From Bacteroidota bacterium (GTDB lineage: Bacteria > Bacteroidota > Ignavibacteria > UBA10030 > UBA6906): a stretch of 40,086 nucleotides of DNA. Positions 10,891-31,111 of the stretch are shown one piece after another. Position 1 is the stretch's first letter. Every line of letters begins with the position of its first letter. The notes beneath the pieces were generated by a model. It was not told the origin of the DNA. It made no database searches and was given only the letters and a program-made list of their open reading frames with translations. Both the position numbers and the translations under genes were made by a program. The stretch covers positions 1 through 40,086 of the forward strand of contig JBGPYM010000002.1 of NCBI GenBank assembly GCA_041493205.1. The letters run 5' to 3'.

Positions 10891-10905
10891 CGCGTCACTC
10901 GTGGC

Positions 10906-11040
10906 TTGACAGTGGCACCGGCGTCCCCCGTCTCGCGCGCCTTCGGCGCACGGACGAGGCTCGTCCCGCCAGAGGCGGGACGGCTGCCGGTGGTTGTTCC
11001 TCAGGAAGAGCGACGGGCGGAGACGCCCGTCCCACTGCAA
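10906..11040 (-). repeat. REP/BIME-like composite palindromic element, long copy
   Basis: The 135-nt block has imperfect terminal inverted repeats and three internal stem-loops, at 10937-10949, 10963-10981 and 11012-11031. About 78 nt recur in inverted orientation at 33006-33079. Confidence 0.75.
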
Positions 11041-11050
11041 AGGGTTGCCC

Positions 11051-11476: not shown

Positions 11477-11522
11477 GGGATATCCAGGTGGTTGGGTGTG
11501 TGGGTGACCCGGCGGGTTGCCC

Positions 11523-12512
11523 CTACCGGTAACTGTTGAGAGCCTTCATGTAATTGGCGCGTTCGAACGCGGCCGGATCGGCGATCGACTTCTGGCTCAT
11601 GCTCCCGCGCATCTGGTTGACCGACACGTATTCGTGTTCGAGCATCCATTGATCGATCCCGGTGAGGACTTCCCGGATATGTTCCGGGCCGTGCCGCAGG
11701 AGGGCCGAGCACATCATGGTGACGTCGGCACCCGCCATCAGCATCTTCAGGACGTCCTGGGCCGTGTGGATGCCGCTGGTCGCGGCAAGACTCGCCTTGA
11801 CATGCCCGTGAAGAATGGCAATCCAGCGGAGCGGCAGCCGGAGGGCCTGCGATGTGCTGAGATTGACGTTCGGCGCCACTTCCAGAGTTTCGAGATTAAT
11901 GTCGGGCTGGTAGAACCGGTTGAAGAGTACAAGGGCGTCCGCCCCCGCGGTGTCGAGCCGGGCCGCCATGTTGGCCATGGAGCTGAAGAACGGGCTCAAC
12001 TTCATCGCCACCGGAATCTTGACAGTGTTTTTGACCGCATGCAGAACTTCAAGGTACCGGTCTTCCACGTCCGCGCCCGTGAGTTTCCGGTCGGTGGGAA
12101 TATAATAGACATTAAGCTCAAGGGCATCCGCCCCCGCTTCTTCAATCTTCTTGGCGAACTTCACCCAGCCGCCGGTCGAAACGCCGTTCAGGCTGCCGAT
12201 CACCGGGATGCCGAGCGCCGCCTTCGCCTTGTGCAGCAGCTCGACGTACTCTTCCGGCCCGAGGTTGTAATCGCCGGTTTCTGGAAAGTACGTGAGGGCC
12301 TCGGCAAAGCTTTCCGTGCCGTACGAGAGGTAGTGATCGAGCTCCATCATCTCATGCGCAATCTGCTCCTCGAAGAGGGAGTACATGACGATGGCTGCGG
12401 CGCCGTTATCTTCGAGCCGCTTCATCCCGTCCAGGGTATGCGAAAGCGGGCCCGCCGAAGGGACAATCGGGTTCTTCAATGCAAGCCCGCAGTACGTCGT
12501 TGAGAGATCCAT
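11523..12512 (-). CDS. Dihydroorotate dehydrogenase-like protein (DHOD/DHPD TIM-barrel family)
   Basis: 329 aa with [20 protein letters not shown] and [12 protein letters not shown]. It starts 35 nt downstream of nifJ. Confidence 0.8.
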
Positions 12513-12547
12513 GTGTGTGATTCCCGCAATAGGTGAATGGAGTCCGG

Positions 12548-15500
12548 TCAGTGTGCCGCGGGTGCGGGGGTCTTCGCCGGTGCAGCGCCGTCCCCGTCCG
12601 CCGCGAGCTCTTCATAGACCTTCCAGCGTTTCTTCACATCCTCTTCCGCGAGCGCCATCAGCCGCTTCGCTGCTTCCGGGTCGCTCTTGGTGAGCATCTT
12701 ATACCTGGCTTCACGGTACGCATACTCTTCGAACCGGATCCGCGGCGCTTTGGAGTCAAGTTTGAAGGGATTCTTTCCTTCGCGCCCCAGCAGCGGATTG
12801 AAACGGTAGAGGGGCCAGTGCCCGCTTTCCACTGCCGCCTTCTGGTTCACCATGCCGGTGGTCATGTTGATGCCATGGGCAATACAGTGCGAATAGGCGA
12901 TGATGATGGAGGGACCGTCGTATGCTTCCGCTTCCATGAATGCGCGGATCGTTTGCATATCGTTCGCGCCCATCGCCACCGCCGCGACGTACACACTCCC
13001 ATACGACATTGCGATCAGACCGAGGTCTTTCTTCGCAAGCGGTTTGCCGCCGGCCGCAAATTTGGCCACGGCAGACCGGGGGGTGGATTTGGACATCTGT
13101 CCGCCCGTGTTGGAATACACCTCCGTGTCGAGCACGAGGATGTTCACGTTCTTGCCTGATGCCAGCACGTGATCCAAACCGCCGAAACCGATGTCATACG
13201 CCCAGCCGTCTCCGCCGATGATCCAGACGCTCTTCTTCACGAGGCTGTCCGCGAGGCTGCGCAACTGGACCGCCTCGGGCGTCACGAGCCCGGCGAGTTT
13301 CTTCTTCAATTCCTCCACGCGCATGCGTTGTTCATGGATTCCCGGCTCGTCACCCTGGATCGCCCCGAGAATTCCCTGTGCAAATGTCTCTCCGATCGTT
13401 CCCGCAAGTTTCTGGACGAGCTCGCGCGCCATCTGCGTGTGCTTATCGATCGTCAGCCGCATGCCGAGGCCGAATTCCGCATTGTCCTCGAACAGGGAGT
13501 TGGACCACGCCGGCCCGCGGCCGTCGTTGTTCTGCGACCAGGGGGTTGTCGGGAGGTTTCCGCCGTAAATCGATGAACAGCCGGTTGCATTGGCGACGAC
13601 CATCCGGTCTCCGAAGAGCTGGGTGGCCAGTTTGATATAGGGCGTTTCACCACAGCCGGAACATGCACCGGAATACTCGAAGAGCGGTTGCAGGAACTGC
13701 GACCCCTTGACGGTGTCCACTTTCACCTGACGCCTGTCGGCTTCAGGCAGCGCAAGAAAGAAATCATAGTTGACGCGTTCCGATTCGCGGATGGCGGGCT
13801 GCGGCATCATGTTGATCGCCTTCAGGCGCGTTTCCGTCTTGTTCTTCGCCGGACAGACGTCAACGCAGAGACCGCACCCGGTGCAGTCTTCCGGTGCGAC
13901 CTGCACGGTGTACTTCATCCCCTTGAACTCGGTTCCCTTGTAATCCATCGCCTTGAACGTTGCGGGAGCCCCGCCCAGCCGCGCCTGATCGTACACCTTG
14001 ATCCTGATGGTCGCATGCGGGCAGACCAGTGCGCACTTATTGCACTGGATACAGATGGAGGAATCCCATACCGGGATTTCAAGGGCGATGTTCCGTTTTT
14101 CCCACTGCGCGGTGCCGGTGGGGTATGTTCCGTCCACGGGCATTTTGCTGACCGGGATCTGGTCCCCGAATCCCGCCATGATCCGGGCCGTGACGTCTTT
14201 CACAAACCCGGGTGCGGCGGGTGAGACCACCGGGGGCATTTCGATCGTGCTGGACGCTTTGGCGGGGACCTTCACCTCAAAAAGATTTGCAAGTGTCTGG
14301 TCGACGGCGGCGAAATTCTGCTCGACGACCTGATCTCCCTTTTTCCCGTATGTCTTCTTGATGGAATGTTTGATGGCTTCGATCGCCTGCGCGCGCGGCA
14401 GAACGCCCGAGATGGCAAAGAAGCAGGTCTGCATGATCGTGTTGACGCGCGCTCCCATGCCGGTCTGCTGGGCGACGTTGTATCCGTCGATGACGTAGAA
14501 CTTGATCTTTTTGTCGATGATCTGCTGCTGAATATGCCGCGGGAGCTTATCCCACACCGTGTCCGGGCCGAAAATGCTGTTGAGGAGGAACGTGGCGCCG
14601 GGGACGGCCGATTTCAGCACATCGAACTTCTCGAGGAAGAACCACTGGTGACATGCCACGAAATTGGCCCTATCCACAAGGTAGGTCGAATGGATGGGGC
14701 GCGGCCCGAACCGGAGGTGGGAGGTCGTTGTGGACCCGGATTTCTTCGAGTCGTACACAAAATACCCCTGCGCGTAGTTGGGCGTGTCTTCCCCGATGAT
14801 CTTGATCGAATTCTTATTTGCTCCGACGGTCCCGTCGGCGCCAAGCCCGTAAAACAGGGCGCGCACGACGTCGTCGCTTTCGGTGGTAAACGCCTGATCG
14901 TAGTCGAGGCTCGTGTGCGACACATCATCGTTGATGCCGACGGTAAAGTGGTTTTTCGGCGCAGGCTTTTTCAGCTCATCGAATACCGCCTTGACCATGG
15001 CAGGCGTGAACTCCTTTGACGAGAGCCCGTACCGGCCGCCGGTTACAAGCGGAAAGGACGTAAAGGGTGCGGTCCGTTCGGTCAATCCCTCGGCAATGGA
15101 AGTGATGACGTCCTGGTAAAGCGGCTCTCCCGCGCTTCCCGGTTCCTTCACCCGGTCCAGCACGGCGATTTTTTTCACGCCTGCGGGAAGGGCGCCGACA
15201 AAATGCGACGCGCTGAACGGGCGGAACAGGCGTACTTTCAGGAGCCCCACTTTTTCTCCGTGGGTATTCAGGTACTCGACTGCTTCCTGGGCCGCTTCCG
15301 CGCCGGAACCCATCATGACGATGACACGATCCGCAGACGGGGAACCCGTGTATTCAAAGAGCCGGTACTGCCGGCCGGTCAGGCCCGCAAACTTGTCCAT
15401 CTGCTTCTGGACAATGCCGGGGCATGCCCGGTAAAACGGATTGACGGTTTCGCGCCCCTGGAAGTAGACGTCGGGGTTCTGCGCCGATCCGCGCATGACG

Positions 15501-16138
15501 GGATGGTCGGGCGAGAGCGCCCGCTGCCGGTGGGCGTAGATCAGCTCGTCGTTGATCATCGTACGGAGGTCGTCATCGGTCAACTGTTCGATCTTCATCA
15601 CTTCGTGGGATGTGCGGAAGCCGTCAAAGAAGTGAAGAAAAGGGATACGGGTTTCGAGCGTCGCTGCCTGTGCGATCAGCGCGGTATCCATGACCTCCTG
15701 GACCGAATTCGACGCAATCATCGCAAAGCCGGTGCTGCGGGCAGCCATCACGTCGCTGTGGTCGCCGAAGATAGAGAGGGCCTGTGCGGCGAGTGACCGG
15801 GCCGAGACATGAAAAACGGTGGAGGTGAGTTCTCCCGCGATCTTGAACATGTTCGGAATCATCAGCAGCAATCCTTGCGACGCGGTAAATGTCGTCGCCA
15901 GCGCACCGGTCTGCAGCGCACCGTGAATTGCGCCTGCCGCCCCCCCCTCGCTCTGCATTTCAGTCACCGAAGGGACGGTTCCCCACAGGTTCGTCCGGCC
16001 TTGTGCGGACCATTCATCCGCCCATTCGCCCATGTTCGATGATGGCGTGATGGGATAAATGGCAATGACCTCATTCAGTTTGTGGGCGACATAGGCGGCG
16101 GCTTCGTTTCCGTCAATCGTGACCATGGTCCGTTTCAT
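12548..16138 (-). CDS. nifJ: Pyruvate:ferredoxin (flavodoxin) oxidoreductase
   Basis: 1196 aa. It has two ferredoxin-type clusters ([12 protein letters not shown] and [12 protein letters not shown]) and a TPP-binding region ([16 protein letters not shown]). Confidence 0.97.
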
Positions 16139-16356
16139 TGAGCTACCTTATCTATTGAGAGCATACACGTAATTGTAAGATTATTCACAAGGTCGGCGCA
16201 CCCTAAAACGCGAATATCATGCCATCAACCATGTGCCGAATTGGGGGAAAAATGCGGTAAAAAAGGCGTGGAATTCCAAGATTTGAGAATATCGGGGGAT
16301 GAACTGAGAATCGGGAAGCGCCGGGGGAGAGGAGAACGCCGGACGGGAGGGAACAG

Positions 16357-17388
16357 TCAGAGTGCCGGTTGTTGCTGCGTCAGACAGTGAAGAGTTCCCA
16401 GCCCCCAGACGAGATCGACGGCGTGAATGCCGACGACTTCCCTGCCGGGGAACAATTCGCCCAGGATGCCGAGGGCGATCCGGTCGTTCGGATCGTTGAA
16501 CGTCGGGACCAGGACCGCGCCGTTGGCGATGTAGAAATTTGCATAGCTTGCAGGAAGGCGGATGCCGTCGAATGTGACGGGGGAGGGCATGGGGAGCACG
16601 ATGACGTCGGGAGCAGACCCGCCTTCGAGCCGTGCTGCGAGGAGCCGCTCGCGGTTCTCGCGCAGCGGCACATGATTCGTGTCGGAGGTGTTTGGCTCCT
16701 CGCACAGAACGATCGTTGTCGCGTTGACAAACCGGGCGACGTCATCCACATGTCCGTGCGTATCGTCGCCCGCGATGCCCCGTCCGAGCCAGAGGATGGT
16801 GGAAACCCCGAGCGCTTCACGGAGGGCCTGCTCCATGTCCGCACGCCCGAGGCCGGGATTTCGTATCTGTACCGAGGGATCGAGAAGACATTCCTCGGTG
16901 GTCAGCAGTGTGCCGCGTCCGTTGACGTCGATGGCGCCGCCTTCGAGGACCAGCGGTTTCCCCTGATACGCCGGACGGAACGCCTTCAGCCCGAGCGCCC
17001 GCGCAGCGCGTGCGGGGATCATTGCATCCTTCTTCCAGTTCTTGTATTTCGCCCAGCCGGTAAACGAGAAATGATTGACGGCGATTGCGCGGGGGGGCGC
17101 ATCGCGCCGGACGAACATCGGTCCGATGTCCCTCGTCCAGGAGCGGTCGGTGGGCGCGCGGAAAAACTCAACGCGTGAACCATCGACGCCCGCCCTTGCG
17201 AAAACGCGCCGGGCTGAACGTTCATGTGCCGCCGATGCGACGATGATCCGCACGGACTCCCCGCGGACAAGCACGCGGACGATTGCGGCATAGACCCAGG
17301 GGATGGGAGCGAATTTGCCCGGCCAGTCGCTCGTGTTATGAGGCCATGCGAGCCACGTCGCCTCGTGCCGGTCCCATTCGGCCGGCAT
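16357..17388 (-). CDS. aguA: Agmatine deiminase
   Basis: 343 aa. The N-terminus is MPAEWDRHEATWLAWPH and the C-terminal catalytic Cys lies in GTLHCLTQQQP (PAD_porph family). Confidence 0.9.
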   Translation of the reverse strand: MPAEWDRHEATWLAWPHNTSDWPGKFAPIPWVYAAIVRVLVRGESVRIIVASAAHERSARRVFARAGVDGSRVEFFRAPTDRSWTRDIGPMFVRRDAPPRAIAVNHFSFTGWAKYKNWKKDAMIPARAARALGLKAFRPAYQGKPLVLEGGAIDVNGRGTLLTTEECLLDPSVQIRNPGLGRADMEQALREALGVSTILWLGRGIAGDDTHGHVDDVARFVNATTIVLCEEPNTSDTNHVPLRENRERLLAARLEGGSAPDVIVLPMPSPVTFDGIRLPASYANFYIANGAVLVPTFNDPNDRIALGILGELFPGREVVGIHAVDLVWGLGTLHCLTQQQPAL

Positions 17389-17426
17389 CCGGTAGCCGAG
17401 CGCTGCGGGGGAGTGGGCGGGGGATG

Positions 17427-18350
17427 TTATGACCGGGGACTCCAGGGTTCGTCGTTCATGAACCGGCGCGTGATACCGCCATACGCGTCAATGCGGCGGT
17501 CGCGAAGAAACGGCCAGTTGCGGCGGACATCTTCGATGCGGGCGGAATCGATTTCGGCTACGATGATCTCTTCCCTGTCGGCCGATCCTTCCGCGATCAC
17601 GATTCCCTGCGGATCGGCGATGAACGAGGAGCCCCAGAACTCAATCCCCGGACCCCCTTCCGCGGGTATTTCGTGGCCGACACGGTTGACTGCGGCGACA
17701 TAGACCCCGTTGGCGATGGCATGCCCGCGCTGCACGATCTGCCAGGCATCGCGCTGGGCCGCGCCAAATTCCGCCTTTTCGTGCGGGTGCCACCCGATCG
17801 CAGTGGGAAAAAACAGTGTCTCCGCCCCCTGCAGCGCAGTCAGGCGGGCTGCCTCCGGATACCACTGGTCCCAGCAGATCAACGTGCCCACCTTCCCCGC
17901 GGCGGTGTCGATCGCGGAAAATCCAAGATCGCCCGGTGTAAAATAAAACTTTTCATAGTACGCAGGATCATCCGGGATATGCATCTTTCTGTAAAGGCCG
18001 GCGATGGAGCCGTCAGCATCAATGATTGCGGCGCTGTTGTGATACACCCCCGCTGCCCGCCGCTCGAACAAAGGCGCGATGATAACGACGCGTTCCCTGC
18101 GTGCCAGCTCTCCCAGTGTCTGGGTGGTGGGACCGGGAATGGCCTCGGCGAGATCAAACTGGGCGACGTCTTCACGCTGGCAGAAATAGCGGGAGCGGAA
18201 AAGCTCGGGGAGGCAGATGACCCTGGCTCCCTGTGCGGCTGCCTGCTGAATCATTTCTGCCGCGTGCCGGAGATTTTCGTCGGGGCTGTTTCCGATCGAC
18301 ATCTGGATCAGTCCGATCGTCAGGCGGCGGGGAGTGGTGGGGGAAGTCAC
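17427..18350 (-). CDS. aguB: N-carbamoylputrescine amidase (carbon-nitrogen hydrolase)
   Basis: 307 aa. The nitrilase-superfamily catalytic residues sit in VICLPELF and GTLICWDQWYPE. It uses a GTG start and lies directly upstream of aguA. Confidence 0.88.
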   Translation of the reverse strand: MTSPTTPRRLTIGLIQMSIGNSPDENLRHAAEMIQQAAAQGARVICLPELFRSRYFCQREDVAQFDLAEAIPGPTTQTLGELARRERVVIIAPLFERRAAGVYHNSAAIIDADGSIAGLYRKMHIPDDPAYYEKFYFTPGDLGFSAIDTAAGKVGTLICWDQWYPEAARLTALQGAETLFFPTAIGWHPHEKAEFGAAQRDAWQIVQRGHAIANGVYVAAVNRVGHEIPAEGGPGIEFWGSSFIADPQGIVIAEGSADREEIIVAEIDSARIEDVRRNWPFLRDRRIDAYGGITRRFMNDEPWSPRS

Positions 18351-18427: not shown

Positions 18428-18456
18428 TTGACAATCGGCGGATTTTCGGGTATGTT
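18428..18456 (+). promoter_or_regulatory. Candidate sigma70-type promoter of the DUF2085-to-repeat-protein unit, leaderless geometry
   Basis: TTGACA (18428-18433), a 17-nt spacer, TATGTT (18451-18456), 5 nt, then ATG at 18462. There is no room for a Shine-Dalgarno sequence. Confidence 0.55.
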
Positions 18457-18461
18457 GCGCC

Positions 18462-18980
18462 ATGCGTTACGCCCGCGTCACATATTTCGTGATCGCGGCA
18501 GGAGCAGCACTCTGGTGTCTGATGATTCTCCTTCCCGCGCTCCTGACGGCGTCGGGCGGATCGCCGGGACAGACAGGGCAGATGATCGCCGCGCTGTTTC
18601 GCCCGCTCTGCCACCGGCTCGATGAACGCTCGTTCCACCTGTTCGGTGTCGCGCTTGCCGTCTGCTCCCGGTGTTCTTCCATTTATTTCGGGTTTCTCCT
18701 CGGGACGCTTGCTTACCCGCTGATCAGAAATCTCCGCACGCCGGTGCTGCCGGGGCGGATCTTCCTCGCGGCGGCCGCGTTCCCGATGCTCGTCGACGTG
18801 GCGTCAGGCATGCTCGGGCTGTATGAAGTCACGAACGTGTCGCGCGCCGTGACGGGGGGTTGGTTCGGCCTCCTGTCACCGTATCTGGTGATTCCCGGTG
18901 CGACGGAGGCGATGGACGGGCTCCTCCACCGCGCGCCACCCACAATGAACCACTCAGAGAAAGGACCAACCGATGCCTGA
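18462..18980 (+). CDS. DUF2085-family membrane protein
   Basis: 172 aa and multi-pass. The Cys/His motif PLCHRLDERSF ... CSRCSSIYFG is typical of DUF2085. Confidence 0.75.
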   Translation: MRYARVTYFVIAAGAALWCLMILLPALLTASGGSPGQTGQMIAALFRPLCHRLDERSFHLFGVALAVCSRCSSIYFGFLLGTLAYPLIRNLRTPVLPGRIFLAAAAFPMLVDVASGMLGLYEVTNVSRAVTGGWFGLLSPYLVIPGATEAMDGLLHRAPPTMNHSEKGPTDA

Positions 18981-19500
18981 AAAACCGAGCAAGCTCATGC
19001 CTGCCCTCTACGGCGGCGTCATCATGGGACTCATCTCCGGCATTCCGTTTCTGAACCTGGTGAACTGTCTGTGCTGCGCGGGCGTGATGCTTGGCGGGTT
19101 CATGGCGGTCTTTTTTTACCAGAAGGACCTGACGCCGGACAAAGGCCCGCTGACCAACAGCGACAGCCTCCAGCTCGGAGCGCTTGCCGGAGTCTTTGGT
19201 GCGCTAGTCGGTCTTGTGCTGACCGTACTCTTTCACTTTGCGCTCGGCGCTGCAGCAGGCGAGGCGACCGGTAAGATCATCATGTCGATGTACGACAAGC
19301 TCGGCATTCTCGACAAGATGCCGCCGGAAGCAGTGGAACAGATGCAGCAGAGCATGAGGGAACAGGCGCTCTCACCGCTGACGATCATCCCGTCCTTCAT
19401 CATAGATCCCCTCTTCGGCCTGATCGGTGGTTTGATCGGCTATTCGGTGTACAAGCCCAAAGGCCCGGCAGCCGGCACGCAGCCTCCGGCGGCGGCCTAG
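18973..19500 (+). CDS. Small integral membrane protein (hypothetical)
   Basis: 175 aa with 3-4 hydrophobic helices and a CLCC motif. Its start overlaps the previous stop by 8 nt (ATGCCTGA). Confidence 0.6.
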   Translation: MPEKPSKLMPALYGGVIMGLISGIPFLNLVNCLCCAGVMLGGFMAVFFYQKDLTPDKGPLTNSDSLQLGALAGVFGALVGLVLTVLFHFALGAAAGEATGKIIMSMYDKLGILDKMPPEAVEQMQQSMREQALSPLTIIPSFIIDPLFGLIGGLIGYSVYKPKGPAAGTQPPAAA

Positions 19501-19524
19501 CGCAGGACACATCCTCACACACCG

Positions 19525-20973
19525 GTGATCCCCATGGGCGGCATTTCGCCGCCCATGGCAGTTGTCGCGGCATTCGCCCTGCTTGCTTTTTCCTCAGTCA
19601 TTACCGTACTTAACACGCTTGTTACCCGACCCCGCATGAAGGGTCCGTTTTTTCCAACAGCTGGCTCACGCCGCATGTCCCCTCAGGATTCAGCCGGTAC
19701 CGCAGGATCGTCCCCGCAGGAGGAAAATCGCCGCCTGAAACGGGCCGTCGAGGAGCTCTCCATCCTGAACGACCTCGCCCGCGCTATCGGCGCTTCGGTG
19801 AACCTCCAGGACATCATGCGGACGATAATTCATCGTTCGTTACGGGCCATCCATGCGGAACAGGGCGTCATCACGCTCGTCGACCGCCGATCGCGCGATG
19901 CGATGAAAACATTTGTCCGCACCGCGGTCAGCTCTACACAGGCCCCGCACTTTCATTTCAGCCAGAGTCTTCTCGGGTGGATGCACCTGAATAAGAAGCC
20001 GCTGGCGATCCAGGACCCGCGCACCGACAGCCGCTTCAAGGGGGTCGAGTGGGACGATTCCATCCGGTCGCTTCTCTGCGTCCCGATGATGGCCAAATCC
20101 GCCCTGATCGGCGTGCTGACGGTCTATAATAAGAAGGAGGGAACCCCGTTTACAGACGAGGACCAGCGCCTCCTCGCGATCATCGCCGGACAATCAGCGC
20201 AGGTCGTGGAAAACGCGCGGCTCTACGAAGAGGAGCAGGCGCTCCACCGGATGAAGGAGGAAGTGCGGCTTGCCGCAACCATTCAGATGGACCTCCTCCC
20301 CAAGACCGCTCCTGTCGTGTCCGGGTATGACATTGCAGGAAGAAGCATCCCTGCACAGCTCGTCGGGGGGGACTACTTCGATTTCATTCCCATCGATGCC
20401 GCACGGCTCGCAATCTGCCTGGCGGATGTCTCCGGCAAAGGACTCCCGGCGTCACTCCTGATGGCCAATGTCCAGGCGACGCTCCGCGGGCAGACGCTGT
20501 CCAATACCTCGGTCAGTTCCTGCATCGCCCGGTCGAACCGGCTGCTCCATCAAAGCACGAGCCCGGAGAAATTTGTGACCGTCTTTTACGGACGGCTCGA
20601 CATCCAGGCGCACACGCTGACATATTGCAATGCCGGGCAGGACAACCCCCTGCTGTTCTCCGCCGAAGGCGAACCGCGGCGGCTCGGGACGGGAGGGATC
20701 GTTCTGAGCATCATGGAGGAATTCCCCTATCAGGAGGAAACCGTTCCGCTCGCGCCGGGGGATTGCCTGATCATGTTTTCGGACGGCATTACCGAGGCGG
20801 TCGATCAACAGGCGGAGCAATTCGGCGAGGCGCGCATCGCCTCGATCGTTAGGACCCGCCGCCTGGAGACGGCGGAAGCGATCATCGATGCCGTGGTCGA
20901 AGCCGTGAGGGTCCATGCGGCGGACGCGCCGCAATCGGACGATATGACCATCGTTGTTGTCAGGCGCCTGTGA
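19525..20973 (+). CDS. GAF-domain PP2C (SpoIIE/RsbU-type) serine phosphatase
   Basis: 482 aa counted from GTG 19525, with an alternative ATG at 19534. A possible N-terminal TM helix is followed by a GAF region. PP2C motifs are GGDYFDF, LADVSGKGLPASLLMA, FSDGITEA and QSDDMTIVVVRR. Confidence 0.88.
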   Translation: MIPMGGISPPMAVVAAFALLAFSSVITVLNTLVTRPRMKGPFFPTAGSRRMSPQDSAGTAGSSPQEENRRLKRAVEELSILNDLARAIGASVNLQDIMRTIIHRSLRAIHAEQGVITLVDRRSRDAMKTFVRTAVSSTQAPHFHFSQSLLGWMHLNKKPLAIQDPRTDSRFKGVEWDDSIRSLLCVPMMAKSALIGVLTVYNKKEGTPFTDEDQRLLAIIAGQSAQVVENARLYEEEQALHRMKEEVRLAATIQMDLLPKTAPVVSGYDIAGRSIPAQLVGGDYFDFIPIDAARLAICLADVSGKGLPASLLMANVQATLRGQTLSNTSVSSCIARSNRLLHQSTSPEKFVTVFYGRLDIQAHTLTYCNAGQDNPLLFSAEGEPRRLGTGGIVLSIMEEFPYQEETVPLAPGDCLIMFSDGITEAVDQQAEQFGEARIASIVRTRRLETAEAIIDAVVEAVRVHAADAPQSDDMTIVVVRRL

Positions 20974-21419
20974 CCACACCCGCCGCAGGGGGCGCCGCCG
21001 GCACCGGAGACCCGATGCGCCAGCTCTTTCAGAAGGAGATGCGTTCGCTGGATGCGCTCTTCGGATTCCTCACCCGGTTCACCCGGGCTGAGCGGATCGA
21101 TGCGGCGGCATCCTATGCCATCGCCCTTGCCGTGGAGGAGTTCTTCACCAACATGGTAAAATACAGCGGCGGGCAGGGGAATCCTGTGCTCGTTGAGGCC
21201 CTCCGTGTCGGAGAAACGGTCACTGTGCGGTTGGAGGAGGAAACGACCGCACCATTTGATGTTACGCGCCCCACCCAGACGCAGTTTGACCGCCCCCCGC
21301 TGGAGCGGCGGCCGGGCGGACTCGGTATTCATATCGCAAAAGAACTGCTGGATGACGTCCAGTACGATTTCAAGGAAGGCACCAGCAGAATCACGCTGAT
21401 TAAACACCTGGAGAAGTAG
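20970..21419 (+). CDS. RsbW/SpoIIAB-like anti-sigma regulatory factor (HATPase_c_2 fold)
   Basis: 149 aa from a GTG that overlaps the upstream stop (GTGA), with an alternative ATG at 21015. The N-box is AVEEFFTNMVKYS and the G2-like segment is RRPGGLGIHIAKELLDDV. Where the G1 box should be, the sequence reads VRLEEETTAPFDV. Confidence 0.8.
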   Translation: MTTPAAGGAAGTGDPMRQLFQKEMRSLDALFGFLTRFTRAERIDAAASYAIALAVEEFFTNMVKYSGGQGNPVLVEALRVGETVTVRLEEETTAPFDVTRPTQTQFDRPPLERRPGGLGIHIAKELLDDVQYDFKEGTSRITLIKHLEK

Positions 21420-21423
21420 CATC

Positions 21424-21711
21424 ATGTTCACGATTACCGTCAACGAAACGGGCGTCATCGAGCTGACGGGTCGACTTGACGCGGCCCAGACCGAGCGGGC
21501 ACGGGAGGTGTTCAACCGGCTGAGTGATTCGGCCGTCGTGGACATGCAGCACCTCGACTATATCTCCAGCGCCGGGCTGGGGGTGCTGCTGGCGACTCAA
21601 CAGCGGCTTGCCAGGGAGGGAGGAAAGGGACTTAGGTTGGTTCACATGAACAAAATGATCCGCGATGTGTTCAGAATCGCCCGATTTGACCTTATTTTCA
21701 CGATAGAGTAG
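21424..21711 (+). CDS. STAS-domain anti-sigma-factor antagonist (RsbV/SpoIIAA-like)
   Basis: 95 aa. The phospho-acceptor context is DYISSAGLGVLL. Confidence 0.88.
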   Translation: MFTITVNETGVIELTGRLDAAQTERAREVFNRLSDSAVVDMQHLDYISSAGLGVLLATQQRLAREGGKGLRLVHMNKMIRDVFRIARFDLIFTIE

Positions 21712-21740
21712 GCCAACTATTTGACCTCTGCATTGTATTT

Positions 21741-22280
21741 ATGACAGAACGCAGCGACGAAGAGTTTGTCCGCCAGTGCCGGTCCGGAGATCGGAAGGCG
21801 TATGATGCGCTCGTGGAACGGTATCAGCGGACGATCTATAATGTAGCGATCAGGATGGTGCGGGACCGGGATGACGCGGCGGACGTGACACAGTCGGTGT
21901 TCGTCAAGGCGTATGAAGGACTCGCAAAGTTCGATGACAGGTTCAAGTTCTTCAGCTGGCTCTACCGGATTGCGGTCAATGAATCCCTGAACCTGCTGAG
22001 CCAGCGGAAGCGGTTTGACGGCCTCGAAGGAGTCGATGTCGCAGAAACAATCGACGAGGGGCTGGACGACGAGACGGTTGAACGGGAAGCCAGCATCCAG
22101 GGTGCTTTGATGCTGTTAAAAAGTGATCAACGTGCAATCATCGTCCTGAAACACATGCAGGGATTGTCGTACGAGGAAATCGGTCAAATCATGGATCTTC
22201 CCGTGAAGAGGGTAAAATCAAGACTCTTCTCTGCGAGGCAGGCCTTGCGGGATCATCTCAGGAAAAAAGGGGTAGGGTGA
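21741..22280 (+). CDS. ECF (group 4) RNA polymerase sigma-70 factor
   Basis: 179 aa. Region 2 reads DAADVTQSVFVKAYEGLAKF...FFSWLYRIAVNESLN. Region 4 reads LSYEEIGQIMDLPVKRVKSRLFSARQALR. Confidence 0.92.
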   Translation: MTERSDEEFVRQCRSGDRKAYDALVERYQRTIYNVAIRMVRDRDDAADVTQSVFVKAYEGLAKFDDRFKFFSWLYRIAVNESLNLLSQRKRFDGLEGVDVAETIDEGLDDETVEREASIQGALMLLKSDQRAIIVLKHMQGLSYEEIGQIMDLPVKRVKSRLFSARQALRDHLRKKGVG

Positions 22281-22284
22281 ACTC

Positions 22285-23037
22285 ATGGACGCAAAAAACA
22301 GAGATTTGCTGAACAGAGACGTGGACGGTGCGGTGACGGATACTGACCGCCAGCAGGTCCAGCGGCTCCTCAAGCGCAGCGCCGAAGCCCGGCGATTCCA
22401 CGCCGAACTGACGCGGCTCTCCCGCCTTCTCTCCGGCGTGGCGGAAGTTGATCCGCCGGTGCACCTCGCGAACAGGATTCGCGCCGCGGTCCATGGCCAT
22501 GACGCCCCCATCCAACCGCGCACACACATCTGGCGCGAGAAATTGACTTCCCTTGTGCATCCGCCGACCCCCCTGCGCTACGGGTCGGTATTTGCCGGTG
22601 GACTTGTGGCAGGCCTCTTCCTGTTTATGACCTTTCTGCAGCCCCTGGACCGGTCATCGGTTCCTGACAGCGCTGCCGCCGGCACCGTTGTGGGACGTGC
22701 AGAATCCATCACTGTCGCCGCCGGTGATGCATCAGGGTCGGTCCGCGTTATGCGCCTCGGAGGGTCGAGCGAGCTTGCGGTCCGGATGACCCTGAACCGC
22801 GGCATTGTCACACGCCTCAGTTTTGATCCCTCCCGGATTACTCTCAAAGGCATCCGCGGGCCCGAAACACCCTCTGGAAGTCTCACGGTCCGGGAGGGCG
22901 TGGTGGAGCTCGCCGGAACGGGGATCCAGGCATGCACGCTTGACCTCGTCCCCCGTACGCCCGGAGCCTCCGTCGCTGTATCGCTCATGGGTGCCGAGGG
23001 GGAACTCCTTCGCAAATCAATCCCGATAGCAGATTAG
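22285..23037 (+). CDS. Single-pass transmembrane anti-sigma factor (non-zinc anti-sigma domain)
   Basis: 250 aa, starting 4 nt after the sigma gene. The N-terminal roughly 55 aa have the anti-sigma-domain helix layout but lack HxxxCxxC. There is one TM helix (YGSVFAGGLVAGLFLFMTFL) and a beta-rich C-terminal domain. Confidence 0.7.
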   Translation: MDAKNRDLLNRDVDGAVTDTDRQQVQRLLKRSAEARRFHAELTRLSRLLSGVAEVDPPVHLANRIRAAVHGHDAPIQPRTHIWREKLTSLVHPPTPLRYGSVFAGGLVAGLFLFMTFLQPLDRSSVPDSAAAGTVVGRAESITVAAGDASGSVRVMRLGGSSELAVRMTLNRGIVTRLSFDPSRITLKGIRGPETPSGSLTVREGVVELAGTGIQACTLDLVPRTPGASVAVSLMGAEGELLRKSIPIAD

Positions 23038-23125
23038 GCTGCAACAGGCCCAACACCCGGGAACAACGGAAGTATTTAAAACAAAGAACCAGTTTTCGCA
23101 CCGGACACCCTTCACAGGAGGCTGT

Positions 23126-24073
23126 ATGGAACAGAGCAACGAACCAACGACTTCAGGACCGAAGCGTTCCCTGCTTATCGGCGCGGCAGTTCTTGCCATC
23201 TGTGCCGTCGTGTACTTCTCGTATTACACCTCCTCTCCGGGAGTTGACAATGCCAGCGGCACCATCGGCGCCGCGAAGAAGTACCGGTCGGGCCAGATTG
23301 CAGAATCAGACGTGAAACTGGCCGAGGCGGGCACACACAATGCGGTCACGGTGAAGGATCCTGCTGACGAGAACGCGGCGACGGAACTGCGCAGCACTGC
23401 AGCAGCCCTCGGGATAACGGCCCGCGATCTCGGTGCACAGCAGTCGTTCGACCGCACCGCGGCCGCCGATCTCGCCCGGGCAGCGGCAGAACTTGGCAAG
23501 ACCGCGCAGGTCGCCCTCGACCACCAGGCATCCCTGGAAAAAACGGTCGTCGCGGACCTGCAGAGCCAGGCGTCGGCATTGCAGAAGAGCGCCGCAGAAG
23601 CCCTGAACAATCAGGCATCGCTCGAGAAATCAGCAATTGTGAATCTCGAAAACAGCGCCCAGTTGCTGGAACGTGCGTCCCTCGCCGCACAGCCCGCCTT
23701 CGAGCGGACGGCCATCGCGGAGTTCTCCCGCACGGCGGAGTCGCTGAATAATGCTGCAAAAGACCTGGGCTCACACCAGGGATTCGACAAGTCGGCGGTT
23801 GCAGAGCTCCAGTCGACGGCGGCCGCTCTCGCACAGGCGGCGCAGGCCATCGGACGCGCCGGCAGCATCGATCGCAACGAAGTCGCCACTCTCATGCAGC
23901 GCGCACGGGAACTGGACAGAACAGCGACAGGCATCCTGGAATCCAAGTCAGGCCTGAGCCGGAACGCGGCGGCAGACCTCGGGCAGAAGTCACAGGCCCT
24001 GGAAAAACAGCTCGCGAGTTTCGAGCGCACCGCGGGCGCGACGCTGGAACAGAAGGCCTCCAGCGACCAGTAA
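23126..24073 (+). CDS. Membrane-anchored tandem-repeat (Ala/Gln/Leu-rich, helical) protein
   Basis: 315 aa. The N-terminal TM helix is LLIGAAVLAICAVVYFSYY. About 8.5 repeats of 26-29 aa follow. GGAGG lies upstream of the ATG. Confidence 0.75.
   Translation: MEQSNEPTTSGPKRSLLIGAAVLAICAVVYFSYYTSSPGVDNASGTIGAAKKYRSGQIAESDVKLAEAGTHNAVTVKDPADENAATELRSTAAALGITARDLGAQQSFDRTAAADLARAAAELGKTAQVALDHQASLEKTVVADLQSQASALQKSAAEALNNQASLEKSAIVNLENSAQLLERASLAAQPAFERTAIAEFSRTAESLNNAAKDLGSHQGFDKSAVAELQSTAAALAQAAQAIGRAGSIDRNEVATLMQRARELDRTATGILESKSGLSRNAAADLGQKSQALEKQLASFERTAGATLEQKASSDQ
23378..24070 (+). repeat. Protein-level tandem repeat array (about 8.5 units of 26-29 aa)
   Basis: The units end in FDRTA, LEKTV, LEKSA, FERTA, FDKSA, IDRNE, LSRNA and FERTA. 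The consensus is x-A-[DE]-L-x3-A-x2-L-x3-A-x2-L-x3-Q-x-[FLI]-[DE]-[RK]-[TS]-A. Confidence 0.8.
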
Positions 24074-24094
24074 TACCCCCAACCACACACACCG

Positions 24095-24138
24095 TACGGG
24101 AGGGTGGCGACTGCCACCCTCCCGTATTGTTTTCTTCC
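24095..24138 (+). terminator. Rho-independent terminator closing the sigma-factor unit
   Basis: Perfect 14-bp stem TACGGGAGGGTGGC (24095-24108) / GCCACCCTCCCGTA (24113-24126) with loop GACT, followed by TTGTTTTCTTCC. Confidence 0.85.
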
Positions 24139-27166: not shown

Positions 27167-28156
27167 ATGGAATTCCTGCTCGGCCTTCTCCCTGTCTGTG
27201 CTTTTCTCGCTGCGCTCTATCTCATGGACAGCTACAAGCTCATCCCTGTCCGCTCACTCGGTTGGTCCCTGGCGGCCGGATGCGGCGCGGCGGTTGCCGC
27301 CTTCGGTCTCAACATGTTCCTCTCGGACGTCACGGGGCTTTCCTTCGAGCCGTTCTCGCGGTACGTCGCACCGGTGACCGAGGAGACGCTGAAATCGGTA
27401 CTGCTGGTGCGTCTGTTGCTGACGCGCAGAACGGGGTTTCTTGTCGATACGGCGATTCACGGCTTTGCAATCGGCGCGGGGTTTGCGCTCGTGGAGAACA
27501 CCGGTTATTTCCTTACGCTGGGGTCGTCCTCGACGCTCCTCTGGATCGTCCGGGGCTTTGGCACGGCGATGATGCATGGTGCGGCGACGTCCATCGCGGG
27601 CATCATCGGGAAGGTGCTGACGGAGCGGGCGGGGTCGGCGTCCCCTGCCACCGTCTTCCCAGGTGTGCTGGCTGCGATACTCATACACTCCGCGTTCAAT
27701 CACTTCTTTCTCACCGCGGTGACGACCACCCAGCTGATTATCCTGGTGCTCCCGGTCCTGATGGGCGTCGTGTTCCGCCGGAGCGAGAAAGCGGTCCGGC
27801 GGTGGCTTGGCGTCGGTTTCGACTCCGACAGGGAGCTGCTGGAGATGATCACCACGGGCCGTCTCCGGGAGACGAAAATCGGCGTGTACTTCCAGACGCT
27901 TGAATCAAGGTTCCGGGGGGAAATTCTCGCCGACATGGTCTGCATGCTCCGGATCCATCTTGAGCTTGCGATTGCCGCGAAGGGGCTCCTCCTCATGCGC
28001 GAGGCGGGATTTGAATTTCCACCGGACCCGGAGTGGAAGGAACAGCTTGCGGAACTGCACTACCTCGAACAGAGCATCGGACGCACGGGCATCCTCGCCG
28101 CCGAGCCATTCCTTCACACCTCCCGGCACCAGCTCGCGCAACTGCTGCGGGTGTAG
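27167..28156 (+). CDS. PrsW-family intramembrane protease with a roughly 130-aa cytoplasmic C-terminal extension
   Basis: 329 aa. The PrsW motifs are EETLK (ExxxK/R class), GFALVEN, HGAATSIAG and HSAFNHF. It starts 12 nt after the previous gene. Confidence 0.8.
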   Translation: MEFLLGLLPVCAFLAALYLMDSYKLIPVRSLGWSLAAGCGAAVAAFGLNMFLSDVTGLSFEPFSRYVAPVTEETLKSVLLVRLLLTRRTGFLVDTAIHGFAIGAGFALVENTGYFLTLGSSSTLLWIVRGFGTAMMHGAATSIAGIIGKVLTERAGSASPATVFPGVLAAILIHSAFNHFFLTAVTTTQLIILVLPVLMGVVFRRSEKAVRRWLGVGFDSDRELLEMITTGRLRETKIGVYFQTLESRFRGEILADMVCMLRIHLELAIAAKGLLLMREAGFEFPPDPEWKEQLAELHYLEQSIGRTGILAAEPFLHTSRHQLAQLLRV

Positions 28157-28262: not shown

Positions 28263-29618
28263 ATGAAACGAATCATTATGCTGGGCATGCTCGCCTGTTC
28301 GATCGCCACGGCAGGCGACGGCAGGCTGTCGGTGCCCTACACGCGCTTCGCACTCCCGAACGGCCTGGATGTCGTCCTCCATGAGGACCATGCGGTCCCG
28401 TCCGTCGCGGTGAACATCTGGTACCATGTCGGATCGGGACGCGAAAAGCCCGGGCGCACCGGGTTCGCCCATCTGTTCGAACATATCATGTTCGAAGGAT
28501 CCAAAAACGTGCCGGAGGGGAAATTCGACGAATGGCTCGAGGCGGCCGGGGGGGACAACAACGGCACTACGACCACCGACCGGACGAATTATTTTGAAAA
28601 CGTCCCGAGCAACGCACTCGAGCTGCCGCTGTTCCTCGAATCGGACAGGATGGGTTTCCTCGTCGATGCCATGACGCCGGCAAAGGTCGACGGTCAGCGT
28701 GACGTCGTAAAAAATGAACGGCGCCAGAGTTATGAGAACCGGCCCTACGGACTCGCTTCGATCCTGCTCAGTGAAAACCTGTACCCGCCGGACCACCCGT
28801 ACCACTGGCCCACGATCGGATCAATGGACGATCTGACTGCGGCAAGCTTTGACGACGTCGTGGAATTCTTCAAGAAATATTATGTGCCCGGGAACGCATC
28901 GCTTGTCATCGCCGGCGATATCGATCCGGCCGGCGCACGGGCACTGGTGGAACGCTGGTTCAGCGATGTCCCCGGAGGGAATCCCGTTCCGCCTCAGCCG
29001 GCGCCGGTAGCGTACCTGACGGAAGAGAAGAGAATTGTGCATGAAGACAAGGTCCAGGTACCGCGCCTGTACATTGCATGGAATTCCCCGCCGTTGTACG
29101 CCCCCGGAGACGCCGAGCTGGACATTCTGGCCAGTGTCCTGACCGCCGGCAAGAATTCCCGGCTCTACAAACGGCTGGTCTATGATATGCAGATTGCGCA
29201 GGACGTGACCGCCTCCCAGGCGTCCTCGGGCCTCGCGTCGACGTTTCAGATCATCGTGACCGCCCGGGCCGGACACGGGCTCTCGGAAATCGAGACAGTC
29301 GTGAACGAGGAAATCAGAAAGGTCAAAGCGGAGACTCCGTCGCAGCGCGAAGTCGACCGCGCCGTGAACCAGTACGAAGCCTCGTTTCTGGACAGGCTTG
29401 AGAATATCGGCACCAAGGCAGATCTCCTGAACAGCTATCTCACCTCCACGGGAAACCCCGACTTCTTCAACGAGGATCTGGCCCGCTACAAGGCGCTCGA
29501 TCCGAAAGATATCCAGTCTGTCGCGGTGACGACCCTGCGTGAGAACGGCCGCGTCGTTCTGAGCATCGTGCCGGAAGGGAAAACTGAACTTGCCGCGACC
29601 AGGGAGGATGGAAAATGA
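28263..29618 (+). CDS. M16-family (pitrilysin-like) zinc peptidase, active subunit
   Basis: 451 aa with a signal peptide. The inverted zinc motif HLFEH lies in GFAHLFEHIMFEGS. AGGAGG lies upstream of the start. Confidence 0.9.
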   Translation: MKRIIMLGMLACSIATAGDGRLSVPYTRFALPNGLDVVLHEDHAVPSVAVNIWYHVGSGREKPGRTGFAHLFEHIMFEGSKNVPEGKFDEWLEAAGGDNNGTTTTDRTNYFENVPSNALELPLFLESDRMGFLVDAMTPAKVDGQRDVVKNERRQSYENRPYGLASILLSENLYPPDHPYHWPTIGSMDDLTAASFDDVVEFFKKYYVPGNASLVIAGDIDPAGARALVERWFSDVPGGNPVPPQPAPVAYLTEEKRIVHEDKVQVPRLYIAWNSPPLYAPGDAELDILASVLTAGKNSRLYKRLVYDMQIAQDVTASQASSGLASTFQIIVTARAGHGLSEIETVVNEEIRKVKAETPSQREVDRAVNQYEASFLDRLENIGTKADLLNSYLTSTGNPDFFNEDLARYKALDPKDIQSVAVTTLRENGRVVLSIVPEGKTELAATREDGK

Positions 29619-31111
29619 ACAGAGAATTCAGCATGAAGAAATCAGACGTCAGAACGATGTGGGGAATGATCGTTGCCGCGATCCTCCTGTCACTTGCGCC
29701 GCTGACATACCTCCAGGCACAACCGGACCGGACCGGTCCGCCGAAACTGGGCCCCCCGCCGGCGCTCAAACTCCCCCCCATCCAGCACCTGAAACTCTCC
29801 AACGGGATCCCGGTCGTCCTGCTTGAAAAACATGCCGTGCCCGTCGTCCAGATCGACCTTGTGGTGAAGGCAGGTGCGTCGATGGAACCCCCCGAGAAAT
29901 CCGGTCTGGCGAGCATGACTGCGACAATGCTGATGGAGGGGGCCGGACTGCGCGACGCCCTCCAGCTCGCCGATGCGATTGACTATCTCGGCGCACACAT
30001 CGGAACGGGGGCAGGGCAGCACACGACAGGCATTTCATTCCACACGCCCGTCGGTAAACTCGACTCGGCACTTGTGCTTCTCTCAGACATTGTGCGCCGT
30101 CCTACGTTTCTGGGGGCCGATCTTGAACGGAAGAAAAAAGAGCGGCTGACCGCGCTGACGCAGTGGCGGGATGAACCGCGCATGCTTGCGTCGGTGATGT
30201 TTAGCCGCACACTGTACGGCACTGCGCACCCCTACGGCGTCCCGTCGATCGGGAGCGAGAAGTCGATACGATCGCTCACGCCGGACGACGTGCGAAAATT
30301 CCACGCCGGCTATTTTGTGCCGGGCAACACCACCATCGTCGTCGTGGGCGATGTCAACCCTGCAGCATTGCTCGCCCGCCTTGAAAAATCGTTCGGAAGC
30401 TGGAAAGGGAAGTCCGCCTCCCTGCCGTCCCTTCCGGCAATTGGGCAGATCAAGGAAAAGACGCTGGTCCTTGTGGACAAGCCGGGGGCACCGCAATCGG
30501 TGATCATGATCGGACGCATCGGCGTGCCGCGGCTGACCGATGATTTCTATCCCATCATAGTGATGAACACGATTCTGGGCGGGTCATTTTCGTCGCGGCT
30601 CAACCAGAACCTCCGCGAGAAGCACGGGTACACCTACGGGGCCGGGTCGCGTTTTGAGTTCCGTCCTCTCCCCGGGCCCTTTGTCGCGAGTGCCTCCGTG
30701 CAAACGGCGGTGACCGACAAGGCCCTGACGGAGTTCATGAATGAGCTGCGCGGGATTCTTGCAGAGGTCCCGGACGAGGAGCTCGCACGAGCGAAAAACT
30801 ACCTCGCGCTCGGATATCCCGGCGACTTCCAATCCGTCGGTCAGATCGCGGGCCAGATCGAAGAACTCGTCATTTACGGCCTGCCGGACGACACGATGAA
30901 CAAGTACATCGGGCGCGTCCTTGCGGTCACGAAGGAAGAAGTGCTGCGCGTGGCCCGGAAGTACGTTGTCCCGGACAACCTGGCGATCGTCATTGTTGGT
31001 GACAGGAAGGAGATCGAAGGGGGAGTTGCGGCGCTCGACCTTGCCCCGGCGACCTACCTGAGCGTCGAGGATGTCCTCGGGCCGGCGCCATCGGCCGGGG
31101 AAGGGAATTGA
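29615..31111 (+). CDS. M16-family peptidase, non-catalytic (HxxEH-less) subunit
   Basis: 498 aa. The ATGA start/stop overlap links it to the upstream gene. The position equivalent to the zinc motif reads GLASMTATMLMEGAG. A signal peptide follows MKKSDVRT. Confidence 0.85.
   Translation: MNREFSMKKSDVRTMWGMIVAAILLSLAPLTYLQAQPDRTGPPKLGPPPALKLPPIQHLKLSNGIPVVLLEKHAVPVVQIDLVVKAGASMEPPEKSGLASMTATMLMEGAGLRDALQLADAIDYLGAHIGTGAGQHTTGISFHTPVGKLDSALVLLSDIVRRPTFLGADLERKKKERLTALTQWRDEPRMLASVMFSRTLYGTAHPYGVPSIGSEKSIRSLTPDDVRKFHAGYFVPGNTTIVVVGDVNPAALLARLEKSFGSWKGKSASLPSLPAIGQIKEKTLVLVDKPGAPQSVIMIGRIGVPRLTDDFYPIIVMNTILGGSFSSRLNQNLREKHGYTYGAGSRFEFRPLPGPFVASASVQTAVTDKALTEFMNELRGILAEVPDEELARAKNYLALGYPGDFQSVGQIAGQIEELVIYGLPDDTMNKYIGRVLAVTKEEVLRVARKYVVPDNLAIVIVGDRKEIEGGVAALDLAPATYLSVEDVLGPAPSAGEGN

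Follow-up and report, generated by a model that had tools for sequence, protein, structure and literature searches.

A widely conserved ECF sigma module with PrsW and RsbW/STAS genes lies beside an unrelated DUF2085 gene pair in a Bacteroidota genome

We analyzed a 40,086-nucleotide stretch of DNA, hereafter the window, from a Bacteroidota bacterium (GTDB lineage Bacteria; Bacteroidota; Ignavibacteria; UBA10030; UBA6906; assembly GCA_041493205.1, contig JBGPYM010000002.1, positions 1 to 40,086 of the forward strand), focusing on a run of same-strand genes around an extracytoplasmic function (ECF) sigma factor. An earlier description made from the letters alone, the sequence-only reading, had presented this run as one eight-gene unit, headed by a DUF2085 membrane protein and bracketed by a promoter at 18428 and a terminator at 24095, in which an RsbW/STAS partner switch is joined to an ECF sigma/anti-sigma pair. 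Eight open reading frames (ORFs) are indeed found on the same strand between 18462 and 24073, and Pfam domain calls support the identities given for the DUF2085, GAF-PP2C, RsbW-like, STAS and ECF sigma genes. Comparison with related loci nevertheless led us to a different delimitation: the region is made up of a widely conserved ECF signaling module, which continues past the terminator to a large secreted protein and a PrsW-family protease, and of an unrelated neighboring gene pair, and is not one eight-gene operon. The features are listed in Table 1.

Table 1. Genes and predicted regulatory features of the locus, in window coordinates.
Feature	Position	Strand	Remarks
Predicted sigma-70-type promoter TTGACA-17-TATGTT	18428..18456	+	ends 5 nucleotides before the DUF2085 ATG
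DUF2085 membrane protein	18462..18980	+	Pfam PF09858, 73.7 bits
Small membrane protein, weak DUF4199 match	18973..19500	+	8-nucleotide overlap with the DUF2085 gene
Hairpin (GACCC/GGGTC, 19628-19645) and T-run	19628..19655	+	in the 174-nucleotide gap before the phosphatase gene
GAF-PP2C (SpoIIE-family) serine phosphatase	19675..20973	+	start revised to Met51 of the over-long ORF
RsbW/SpoIIAB-type GHKL protein (serine kinase/anti-sigma fold)	21015..21419	+	start corrected
Single-domain STAS antagonist	21424..21711	+	STAS, 43.7 bits; TIGR00377, 55.3 bits (cut-off 53.45)
Predicted ECF-type promoter P1, CCAAC-N17-GTATTT	21713..21740	+	CCAAC 21713-21717; TGTA 21734-21737; sigma ATG 21741
ECF (group 4) sigma, RpoE/SigW-like	21741..22280	+	Sigma70_r2, 65.1 bits; r4_2, 49.9 bits; 179 residues
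Single-pass membrane anti-sigma (gene 7), RsiW-like class I domain	22285..23037	+	no Pfam family above threshold
Weaker predicted ECF-type promoter P2, CCAAC-N17-GTATTT	23050..23077	+	upstream of gene 8
Gene 8, N-terminally anchored Ala/Gln-rich protein	23126..24073	+	degenerate repeats of ~28 residues; no Pfam family above threshold
Intrinsic terminator-like hairpin (14-15 bp) and T-run	24094..24127	+	between gene 8 and the large gene
Secreted protein of ~980 residues	24203..27154	+	signal peptide, HExxH helical domain, TolB-like beta-propeller, C-terminal beta-barrel
PrsW-family intramembrane protease	27167..28156	+	PF13367, 69.2 bits

An alignment of the large secreted protein was used to scan one genome per species and returned at least 587 matching stretches. 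The best 80 of these, all from metagenome-assembled genomes (MAGs) except for one single-cell genome, were compared at the level of the locus, and genes were counted by tblastn with the window proteins. Forty-five loci had at least 4.5 kb of DNA upstream of the large gene; the RsbW-like, STAS and ECF genes were found upstream of it, on the same strand, in 38 of them, and STAS together with ECF in 41. On the other side, PrsW directly followed the large gene in 67 of the 70 loci used for that count, so that the terminator at 24094 does not mark the end of the conserved unit, as had been proposed, and the unit extends beyond it to the large protein and PrsW. Taking the RsbW-like protein as the anchor gave the same picture: around eight homologues, ranging in identity from 89% down to 41%, the order was in every case RsbW-like protein, STAS, ECF, a protein of ~250-270 residues, a protein of variable length, a protein of ~930-1000 residues and PrsW, with some contexts adding the GAF-PP2C phosphatase and/or a second STAS gene. 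No group-3 sigma gene, or any second sigma gene, was seen in the conserved block. The linkage of partner-switch genes with the ECF pair put forward by the sequence-only reading is thus borne out, and the adjacency is not peculiar to this genome, recurring instead across many phyla.

Among the best 80 loci, carriers of the module belong to Ignavibacteriota, Bacteroidota, 'Chlorobiaceae', Thermoanaerobaculia and other Acidobacteriota, Latescibacterota, Eisenbacteria, Calditrichia, KSB1, Zixibacteria, Krumholzibacteriia, Fibrobacteraceae and Neomarinimicrobiota (Marinimicrobia). Judging from this taxonomy (the FCB group and lineages of Acidobacteriota), the carriers are probably diderm.

At the center of the module, the sigma factor consists of regions 2 and 4 only. 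It clearly passed the general model TIGR02937 (95.6 bits, cut-off 42.9) and fell below the equivalog cut-offs for both RpoE (TIGR02939, 127.1 vs 236.15) and SigW (PRK09641, 125 vs 209); its nearest solved relatives are AlgU-like, RpoE and SigW proteins. Region 2.2 is canonical, the DDAxDITQ motif is conserved and the N-terminus and linker are variable, and no special docking region was found on the protein. Direct phosphorylation of the sigma is the mechanism that has been proposed for kinase-linked ECF groups; the variable N-terminus and linker and the canonical region 2.2 argue against control of this kind here.

The gene that follows encodes a single-pass, RsiW-like anti-sigma factor. A profile of its first 95 residues matched RsiW (5WUQ_C, E=1.3e-10) and, less strongly, RskA (1.4e-3), a weak match to the NCBIfam 'antisigma' model NF052375 was recorded (34.4 bits), and nearly all loci have, directly behind the ECF gene, an ORF of ~260 residues whose transmembrane segment lies at about residues 95-100. 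In the family consensus there is no Cys or His at the positions that align with the zinc-binding HxxxCxxC motif. In five loci (L012, L017, L022, L053 and L079), a single ORF of 361-434 residues, with its transmembrane segment at about residues 105-115 (residue 47 in L053), occupies the space between the ECF and large genes, where the anti-sigma and the repeat protein may have been fused or the repeat protein lost.

The third element of this core is the protease. Across 74 PrsW sequences, residues E72, E73, K76, E110, N111, H137, H174 and N178, which make up the motifs EExxK, EN, H and HxxxN, are at least 93% conserved. The protein also carries an additional C-terminal domain of ~130 residues (about 200-329), with more than 20 positions conserved at 93% or above in the same 74 sequences, that had no match in Pfam or the PDB. 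By the positive-inside rule this domain is probably cytoplasmic, and it could be a docking site for regulators. No gene for a site-2 protease was seen in the 40-kb window. Downstream of PrsW lie two genes for M16 (insulinase-type) peptidases (28263-31111), a pair that is syntenic in the Bacteroidota/Ignavibacteria-type loci L007, L028, L087 and L088 and not in other phyla.

We then considered the DNA upstream of the sigma gene, where a sharply conserved motif is found. A search for bipartite words in the 150 nucleotides upstream of the ECF genes recovered CCAAC...TGTA in 40 of 53 loci; refined to CAAC-N17-GTA (N18 in three loci), the motif is present in 52 of 53, with the consensus aCCAACtTTTt...tGTAtTT. 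In the window, this predicted promoter, P1, takes up the entire 29-nucleotide spacer between STAS and the sigma gene and scores 30.1 against the position weight matrix (PWM) built from it, and the ATG of the sigma gene comes 3 nucleotides after the GTA; across the loci, the annotated start codon stands 3-4 nucleotides after the GTA in 40 of the 52 and 6-8 nucleotides after it in eight. Since no Shine-Dalgarno sequence stands ahead of the ATG, and region 2 is reached without a further in-frame start codon, we infer that the sigma mRNA is leaderless or nearly so. The exact string CCAAC-N17-GTATTT occurs twice in the window (21713 and 23050), both times on the plus strand, against 0.00 expected from shuffles. 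When the PWM was applied to 1.25 Mb of loci, it gave 38 further matches of at least 12 bits, all on the coding strand, about 27 of which come after the anti-sigma gene and before the gene-8 family, leaving leaders of ordinary length. The motif resembles the promoters of Bacillus subtilis ECF sigmas, which have a -35 element of the form tgaAACnTTTt and, for sigmaW, a -10 element CGTA (PMC5758882).

Other candidate promoter elements fared less well. The sigmaE-like sequence ATGAAC-N19-TCAGA noted by the sequence-only reading lies within a conserved stretch of the STAS coding region (HMNKMIRDVF) and is distinct from the conserved promoter. Upstream of the RsbW-like gene no conserved bipartite motif emerged, the best word pair being found in 8 of 49 sequences. 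One locus, L033, has no RsbW, STAS, ECF or PrsW gene near its large gene (10001-12940); it does have a strong ECF promoter motif at 8479, ~1.5 kb upstream of that gene, which suggests that the sigma is encoded elsewhere.

Immediately upstream of P1 stand the genes of the putative partner switch. The phosphatase contains a SpoIIE domain matching over the full Pfam model (164.6 bits) and a GAF_2 domain (64.1 bits). Because its homologues, which are 432-434 residues long, align from Met51 of the window ORF, its start is placed at the ATG at 19675, and the gap behind the DUF4199-like gene becomes 174 nucleotides. This start, together with the aspartate motifs GGDYFDF, DVSGKG, DGITEA and DDMT, is conserved in five aligned sequences. 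The position of the gene varies: 12 of 45 loci have it within 6.5 kb upstream, and the others either carry it behind PrsW or lack it at the locus.

The RsbW-like protein matched HATPase_c_2 with 58.6 bits (cut-off 27.4), and its family profile found B. subtilis RsbW (6M36, E=4.4e-6) as the best match in the PDB, followed by SpoIIAB; it is far below the RsbW equivalog cut-off (16.7 vs 145). Since almost all of its homologues are 134 residues long, its start is placed at the ATG at 21015, which leaves a gap of 41 nucleotides behind the phosphatase gene and removes the GTGA overlap that had been described. Of the very tight junctions reported earlier, therefore, the 8-nucleotide overlap between the first two genes holds, whereas two others (+24 and -4) came from over-long ORFs and become 174 and +41 nucleotides. 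In the ATP site, the E/N of the N-box and the GGLG of the G2-box are conserved, and a deletion has removed the His in the N-box region.

In the STAS protein, the serine aligned with S58 of SpoIIAA, within LxYISSAGLG, is invariant in 53 of 53 sequences. A second STAS gene stands alone on the minus strand at 35708-35995, between purA and secF; its product (45.8 bits) is 28% identical to the STAS protein of the module and is probably what the sequence-only reading meant when it spoke of both STAS proteins.

Between the anti-sigma and PrsW lie the two remaining members of the module. Gene 8 had been called a repeat protein, and at the protein level it does have repeats, albeit degenerate ones, but no tandem repeat was found in its DNA. 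It was matched by tblastn in 32 of 45 loci, and its length differs among them. The hairpin that follows is the terminator recognized earlier, with a stem of 14-15 bp, and it is kept in L087 and L088, the closest relatives of the window, with one compensatory pair in L088 according to our reading of the alignment.

The longest ORF of the large protein begins within this terminator, and its homologues align from Met34. At 90% identity the family comprises at least 5857 clusters, nearly all of which have neither a name nor a Pfam family; identity remains at ~50-55% even between members of different phyla, and the HExxH motif is invariant in the alignments. In the AlphaFold (AF2) model (predicted local distance difference test score, pLDDT, 83.8; predicted template-modeling score, pTM, 0.82), a signal helix precedes the HExxH helical domain, the beta-propeller and the C-terminal beta-barrel. 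A comparison of this fold with the PDB matched only the propeller (TolB, TM-score ~0.2 on the query) and gave no relative of the whole protein.

How does this module compare with systems that are already known? The closest functional analogue of its core is sigmaW/RsiW/PrsW, whose pathway of regulated intramembrane proteolysis, sigmaW-RsiW-PrsW-RasP, has been reviewed for B. subtilis (PMC4105308). Both have an ECF sigma of the RpoE/SigW type, a single-pass anti-sigma that matches RsiW, a PrsW with catalytic-type motifs and an autoregulatory promoter, predicted in the case of the module, with an AAC -35 element, a T-tract and a GTA -10 element. In contrast to the sigmaW system, the sigma described here is under the SigW and RpoE equivalog cut-offs and the anti-sigma is without the zinc Cys/His motif; prsW belongs to the same cluster and encodes the extra ~130-residue domain; the promoter has CCAAC at -35 and TGTA rather than CGTA at -10, with the start codon of the sigma gene abutting it; and an RsbW/STAS/PP2C switch, an anchored repeat protein and the ~980-residue HExxH/propeller/barrel protein are added.

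For this additional switch, the closest functional analogues are RsbU/W/V and SpoIIE/AB/AA of Firmicutes, with which it shares its three types of protein: PP2C phosphatase, compact GHKL-type protein and STAS antagonist, the last with its phospho-acceptor serine invariant. Unlike in Firmicutes, there is no group-3 sigma in the locus, only a group-4 ECF sigma with a membrane anti-sigma of its own; a GAF input domain is present in the phosphatase, whose gene varies in position or is absent from the locus; and the RsbW-like protein has lost the His of the N-box region and, in the clade of the window, has Glu in place of the G1-box Asp.

An ECF sigma, an anti-sigma and such a switch have been found together before in a single known locus, Bordetella btr, which encodes the sigma BtrS, the anti-sigma BtrA and the PP2C/kinase/STAS switch BtrU/BtrW/BtrV (PMC7498569). 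That locus differs from the present one in that its anti-sigma is secreted, its genes are interspersed with unrelated ones, PrsW is lacking and it is confined to one genus; its switch serves type III secretion through an unknown mechanism and target (PMC7498569). PhyR-NepR-sigmaEcfG (ECF15) of Alphaproteobacteria likewise places an ECF sigma under a phosphorylation-dependent partner switch (PMC7826278), but it works with a response regulator that has a sigma-like domain and a small anti-sigma, and involves no STAS protein, GHKL kinase, PP2C or proteolysis.

In full-text searches of the literature, no cluster of RsbW, STAS, ECF and PrsW was found to be described. Multi-layered regulation is discussed in the main text of the ECF classification paper, where RsbW, STAS and PrsW do not appear, and ECFs are likewise absent from a 2021 review of STAS-only proteins. 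The combination of RsbW, STAS, ECF, anti-sigma and PrsW, present in hundreds of uncultured species, thus seems to be undescribed, although the entry for the relevant group in ECF Hub may already list this neighborhood.

Taken together, the module is best explained as a proteolytic cascade of the sigmaW/RsiW/PrsW kind that receives an additional input from a phospho-serine partner switch, an explanation that we hold at about even confidence; that two layers of control act on a single ECF sigma is plausible. Under this scheme, the ECF sigma would be held at the membrane by the RsiW-like anti-sigma until an envelope signal causes PrsW to make the first cut in the latter, and a site-2 protease encoded elsewhere would then finish its degradation. 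We propose that PrsW initiates this proteolysis because the sigma, the anti-sigma and PrsW are the components of the sigmaW-RsiW-PrsW pathway. The freed sigma would transcribe its own gene from P1, giving the leaderless or nearly leaderless mRNA, and the anchored repeat protein from P2, while read-through of the terminator from P2 may supply the large protein and PrsW and so close a positive feedback loop.

The GAF-PP2C phosphatase, the RsbW-type GHKL protein and the STAS protein would form a cytoplasmic partner switch encoded upstream of P1. In nearly every locus it directly precedes P1, and the phospho-acceptor serine is retained; the switch therefore almost certainly functions within this circuit. 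In the version that we favor, which follows the classical logic, the RsbW-like protein would hold the sigma, or the complex in which it is released, until dephosphorylated STAS captures the RsbW-like protein, so that both the envelope and the cytoplasmic signals would be needed for sigma activity. The specific proposal contained in this version, namely that an RsbW/SpoIIAB-type GHKL protein directly binds an ECF sigma without region 3, that phospho-regulated STAS reverses the binding and that the sigma is active only when the PrsW and GAF-PP2C signals coincide, is tentative, and we would sooner doubt than believe it. The contacts between these proteins, like the cleavage of the anti-sigma, are predicted from domain identity and gene order.

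Several observations weigh against this scheme or parts of it. The sigmas that RsbW/SpoIIAB-type proteins are known to bind belong to group 3, and part of the contact is made by region 3, an element missing from ECF sigmas. Most RsbW-like members have Asp in the G1-box, but Glu is found in the window, L001 and L028, and the kinase activity of the RsbW-like protein is therefore uncertain in this clade. Four loci of Ignavibacteria type (L078, L082, L084 and L086) have STAS and ECF without an adjoining RsbW-like gene, the STAS serine being conserved in all four and L086 also having a PP2C gene, which tips the balance a little in favor of STAS as the main partner.

As for transcription, the 3-4 nucleotides between GTA and ATG at P1 are fewer than the usual distance from an ECF -10 element to the start codon, leaving the start of sigma transcription uncertain. 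P2 is degenerate and only partly kept in L087 and L088, and for this reason we hold it with less confidence than P1. A strong terminator, moreover, stands between gene 8 and the large gene that read-through would have to reach. Finally, in a mirror-tree analysis that covered 37 loci and compared RsbW, STAS, ECF, anti-sigma, PrsW and the large protein, all correlations lay between r 0.37 and 0.68, and the partial correlation of RsbW with ECF, controlling for the large protein and PrsW, was 0.01; since the pairs that served as positive controls gave low values too (RsbW-STAS 0.17, ECF-anti-sigma 0.22), this analysis cannot separate models of the switch.

The switch may instead belong to the module and act on proteolysis, with the STAS protein or the RsbW-like kinase gating it through another component, for which the cytoplasmic domain of the anti-sigma and the C-terminal domain of PrsW are candidates, an alternative that is possible and, in our estimation, rather improbable. 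In its favor, ECF sigmas lack region 3, and an RsiW-like anti-sigma is already present as the cognate partner of this sigma. STAS adjoins ECF in more of the 45 loci than RsbW does (41 vs 38), the four loci just named keep STAS with no adjacent RsbW, and PrsW offers a conserved extra domain of no known family. The distances among RsbW sequences correlate best with those of PrsW (r 0.68, weak evidence). Such an output would resemble that of Bordetella BtrU/W/V or Vibrio SypE/SypA, switches with a non-sigma target, and the Bordetella switch proteins are not negative regulators of the ECF sigma BtrS (PMC7498569). Set against this, the RsbW-like protein keeps the compact 134-residue architecture typical of anti-sigma factors, and the cytoplasmic position of the PrsW domain is predicted by the positive-inside rule only.

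We consider it unlikely that the RsbW-like/STAS pair controls another sigma or another target encoded elsewhere, its adjacency to the ECF gene being due to co-inheritance or co-expression. All characterized RsbW-type anti-sigmas do target non-ECF sigmas (PMC7406223), the lone STAS gene at 35708-35995 points to a STAS network larger than the locus, and the mirror-tree analysis gave no RsbW-ECF signal, although its controls were weak too. Yet the order RsbW, STAS, promoter, ECF is kept across many phyla, with the stop codon of STAS abutting the ECF promoter, all eight sampled members of the RsbW subfamily lie inside the module, and the conserved block offers no other sigma.

Partner switches and ECF/anti-sigma pairs are two of the main means by which bacteria control alternative sigmas, and they are normally treated separately. 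Here both are fixed in one gene order across many phyla, together with PrsW and a sharply conserved promoter motif, which provides a concrete, testable case for the combination of cytoplasmic and envelope signals on one sigma. The module also gives a regulatory context to the very large uncharacterized family of the ~980-residue HExxH/propeller/barrel protein, and the predicted promoter can be used to define the regulon in MAGs of Ignavibacteriota, Bacteroidota, Acidobacteriota, Latescibacterota and related groups. Should the RsbW-like protein indeed bind the ECF sigma directly, a classical partner switch would for the first time have been shown to control a sigma of the ECF type, in hundreds of species from mostly uncultured phyla, with the ~980-residue envelope family as its main output or sensor.

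Returning to the genes at the left end of the region, the DUF2085 gene and the DUF4199-like gene behind it (27.2 bits against PF13858, below the Pfam cut-off of 32.3) accompany the module in just three of ~90 loci: they directly adjoin it in the window and L087 and lie 4 kb farther upstream in L028. In L001, the DNA upstream of the phosphatase gene holds an ABC-transporter cluster, and DUF2085 was not seen there. Given this restricted distribution, the two genes are lineage-specific local neighbors that lie outside the conserved module, and DUF2085 does not head it. The promoter at 18428 identified by the sequence-only reading is well supported, as the segment from the -35 element through the ATG has a single substitution relative to L087 (L087 6400-6452), while the sequence farther upstream diverges. 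It serves the DUF2085/DUF4199-like pair and not the conserved module. Its spacing from the ATG suggests a leaderless mRNA, and leaderless starts may be common in the lineage of the window.

The model of a single operon from 18428 to 24095, in which DUF2085 and the small membrane protein act as its sensors or inputs, is accordingly very unlikely: the eight genes do share a strand, both the promoter and the terminator exist and are kept in the closest relatives, L087 has the identical gene order and upstream promoters may read through into the sigma gene, but apart from the distribution of the pair, a 174-nucleotide gap with a hairpin separates the DUF4199-like and phosphatase genes, predicted ECF promoters lie within the supposed operon (21713-21740, before the sigma gene, and 23050, before gene 8), and synteny continues past the terminator.

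The hairpin in this gap may be a terminator or a regulatory hairpin; its stem is kept in L087, where substitutions are confined to the loop. The spacer as a whole (19500-19675) is 86% identical to that of L087 and also contains the stretch TTGCTT-N18-TACTTA, and it may hold a terminator, a promoter or a regulatory element. On the other side of the DUF2085 gene, the minus strand (12548-18350) encodes a pyruvate:ferredoxin oxidoreductase of 1196 residues, an agmatine deiminase (PAD_porph) and a CN-hydrolase that fits N-carbamoylputrescine amidase, metabolic genes whose identical order in L087 indicates a chromosomal context.

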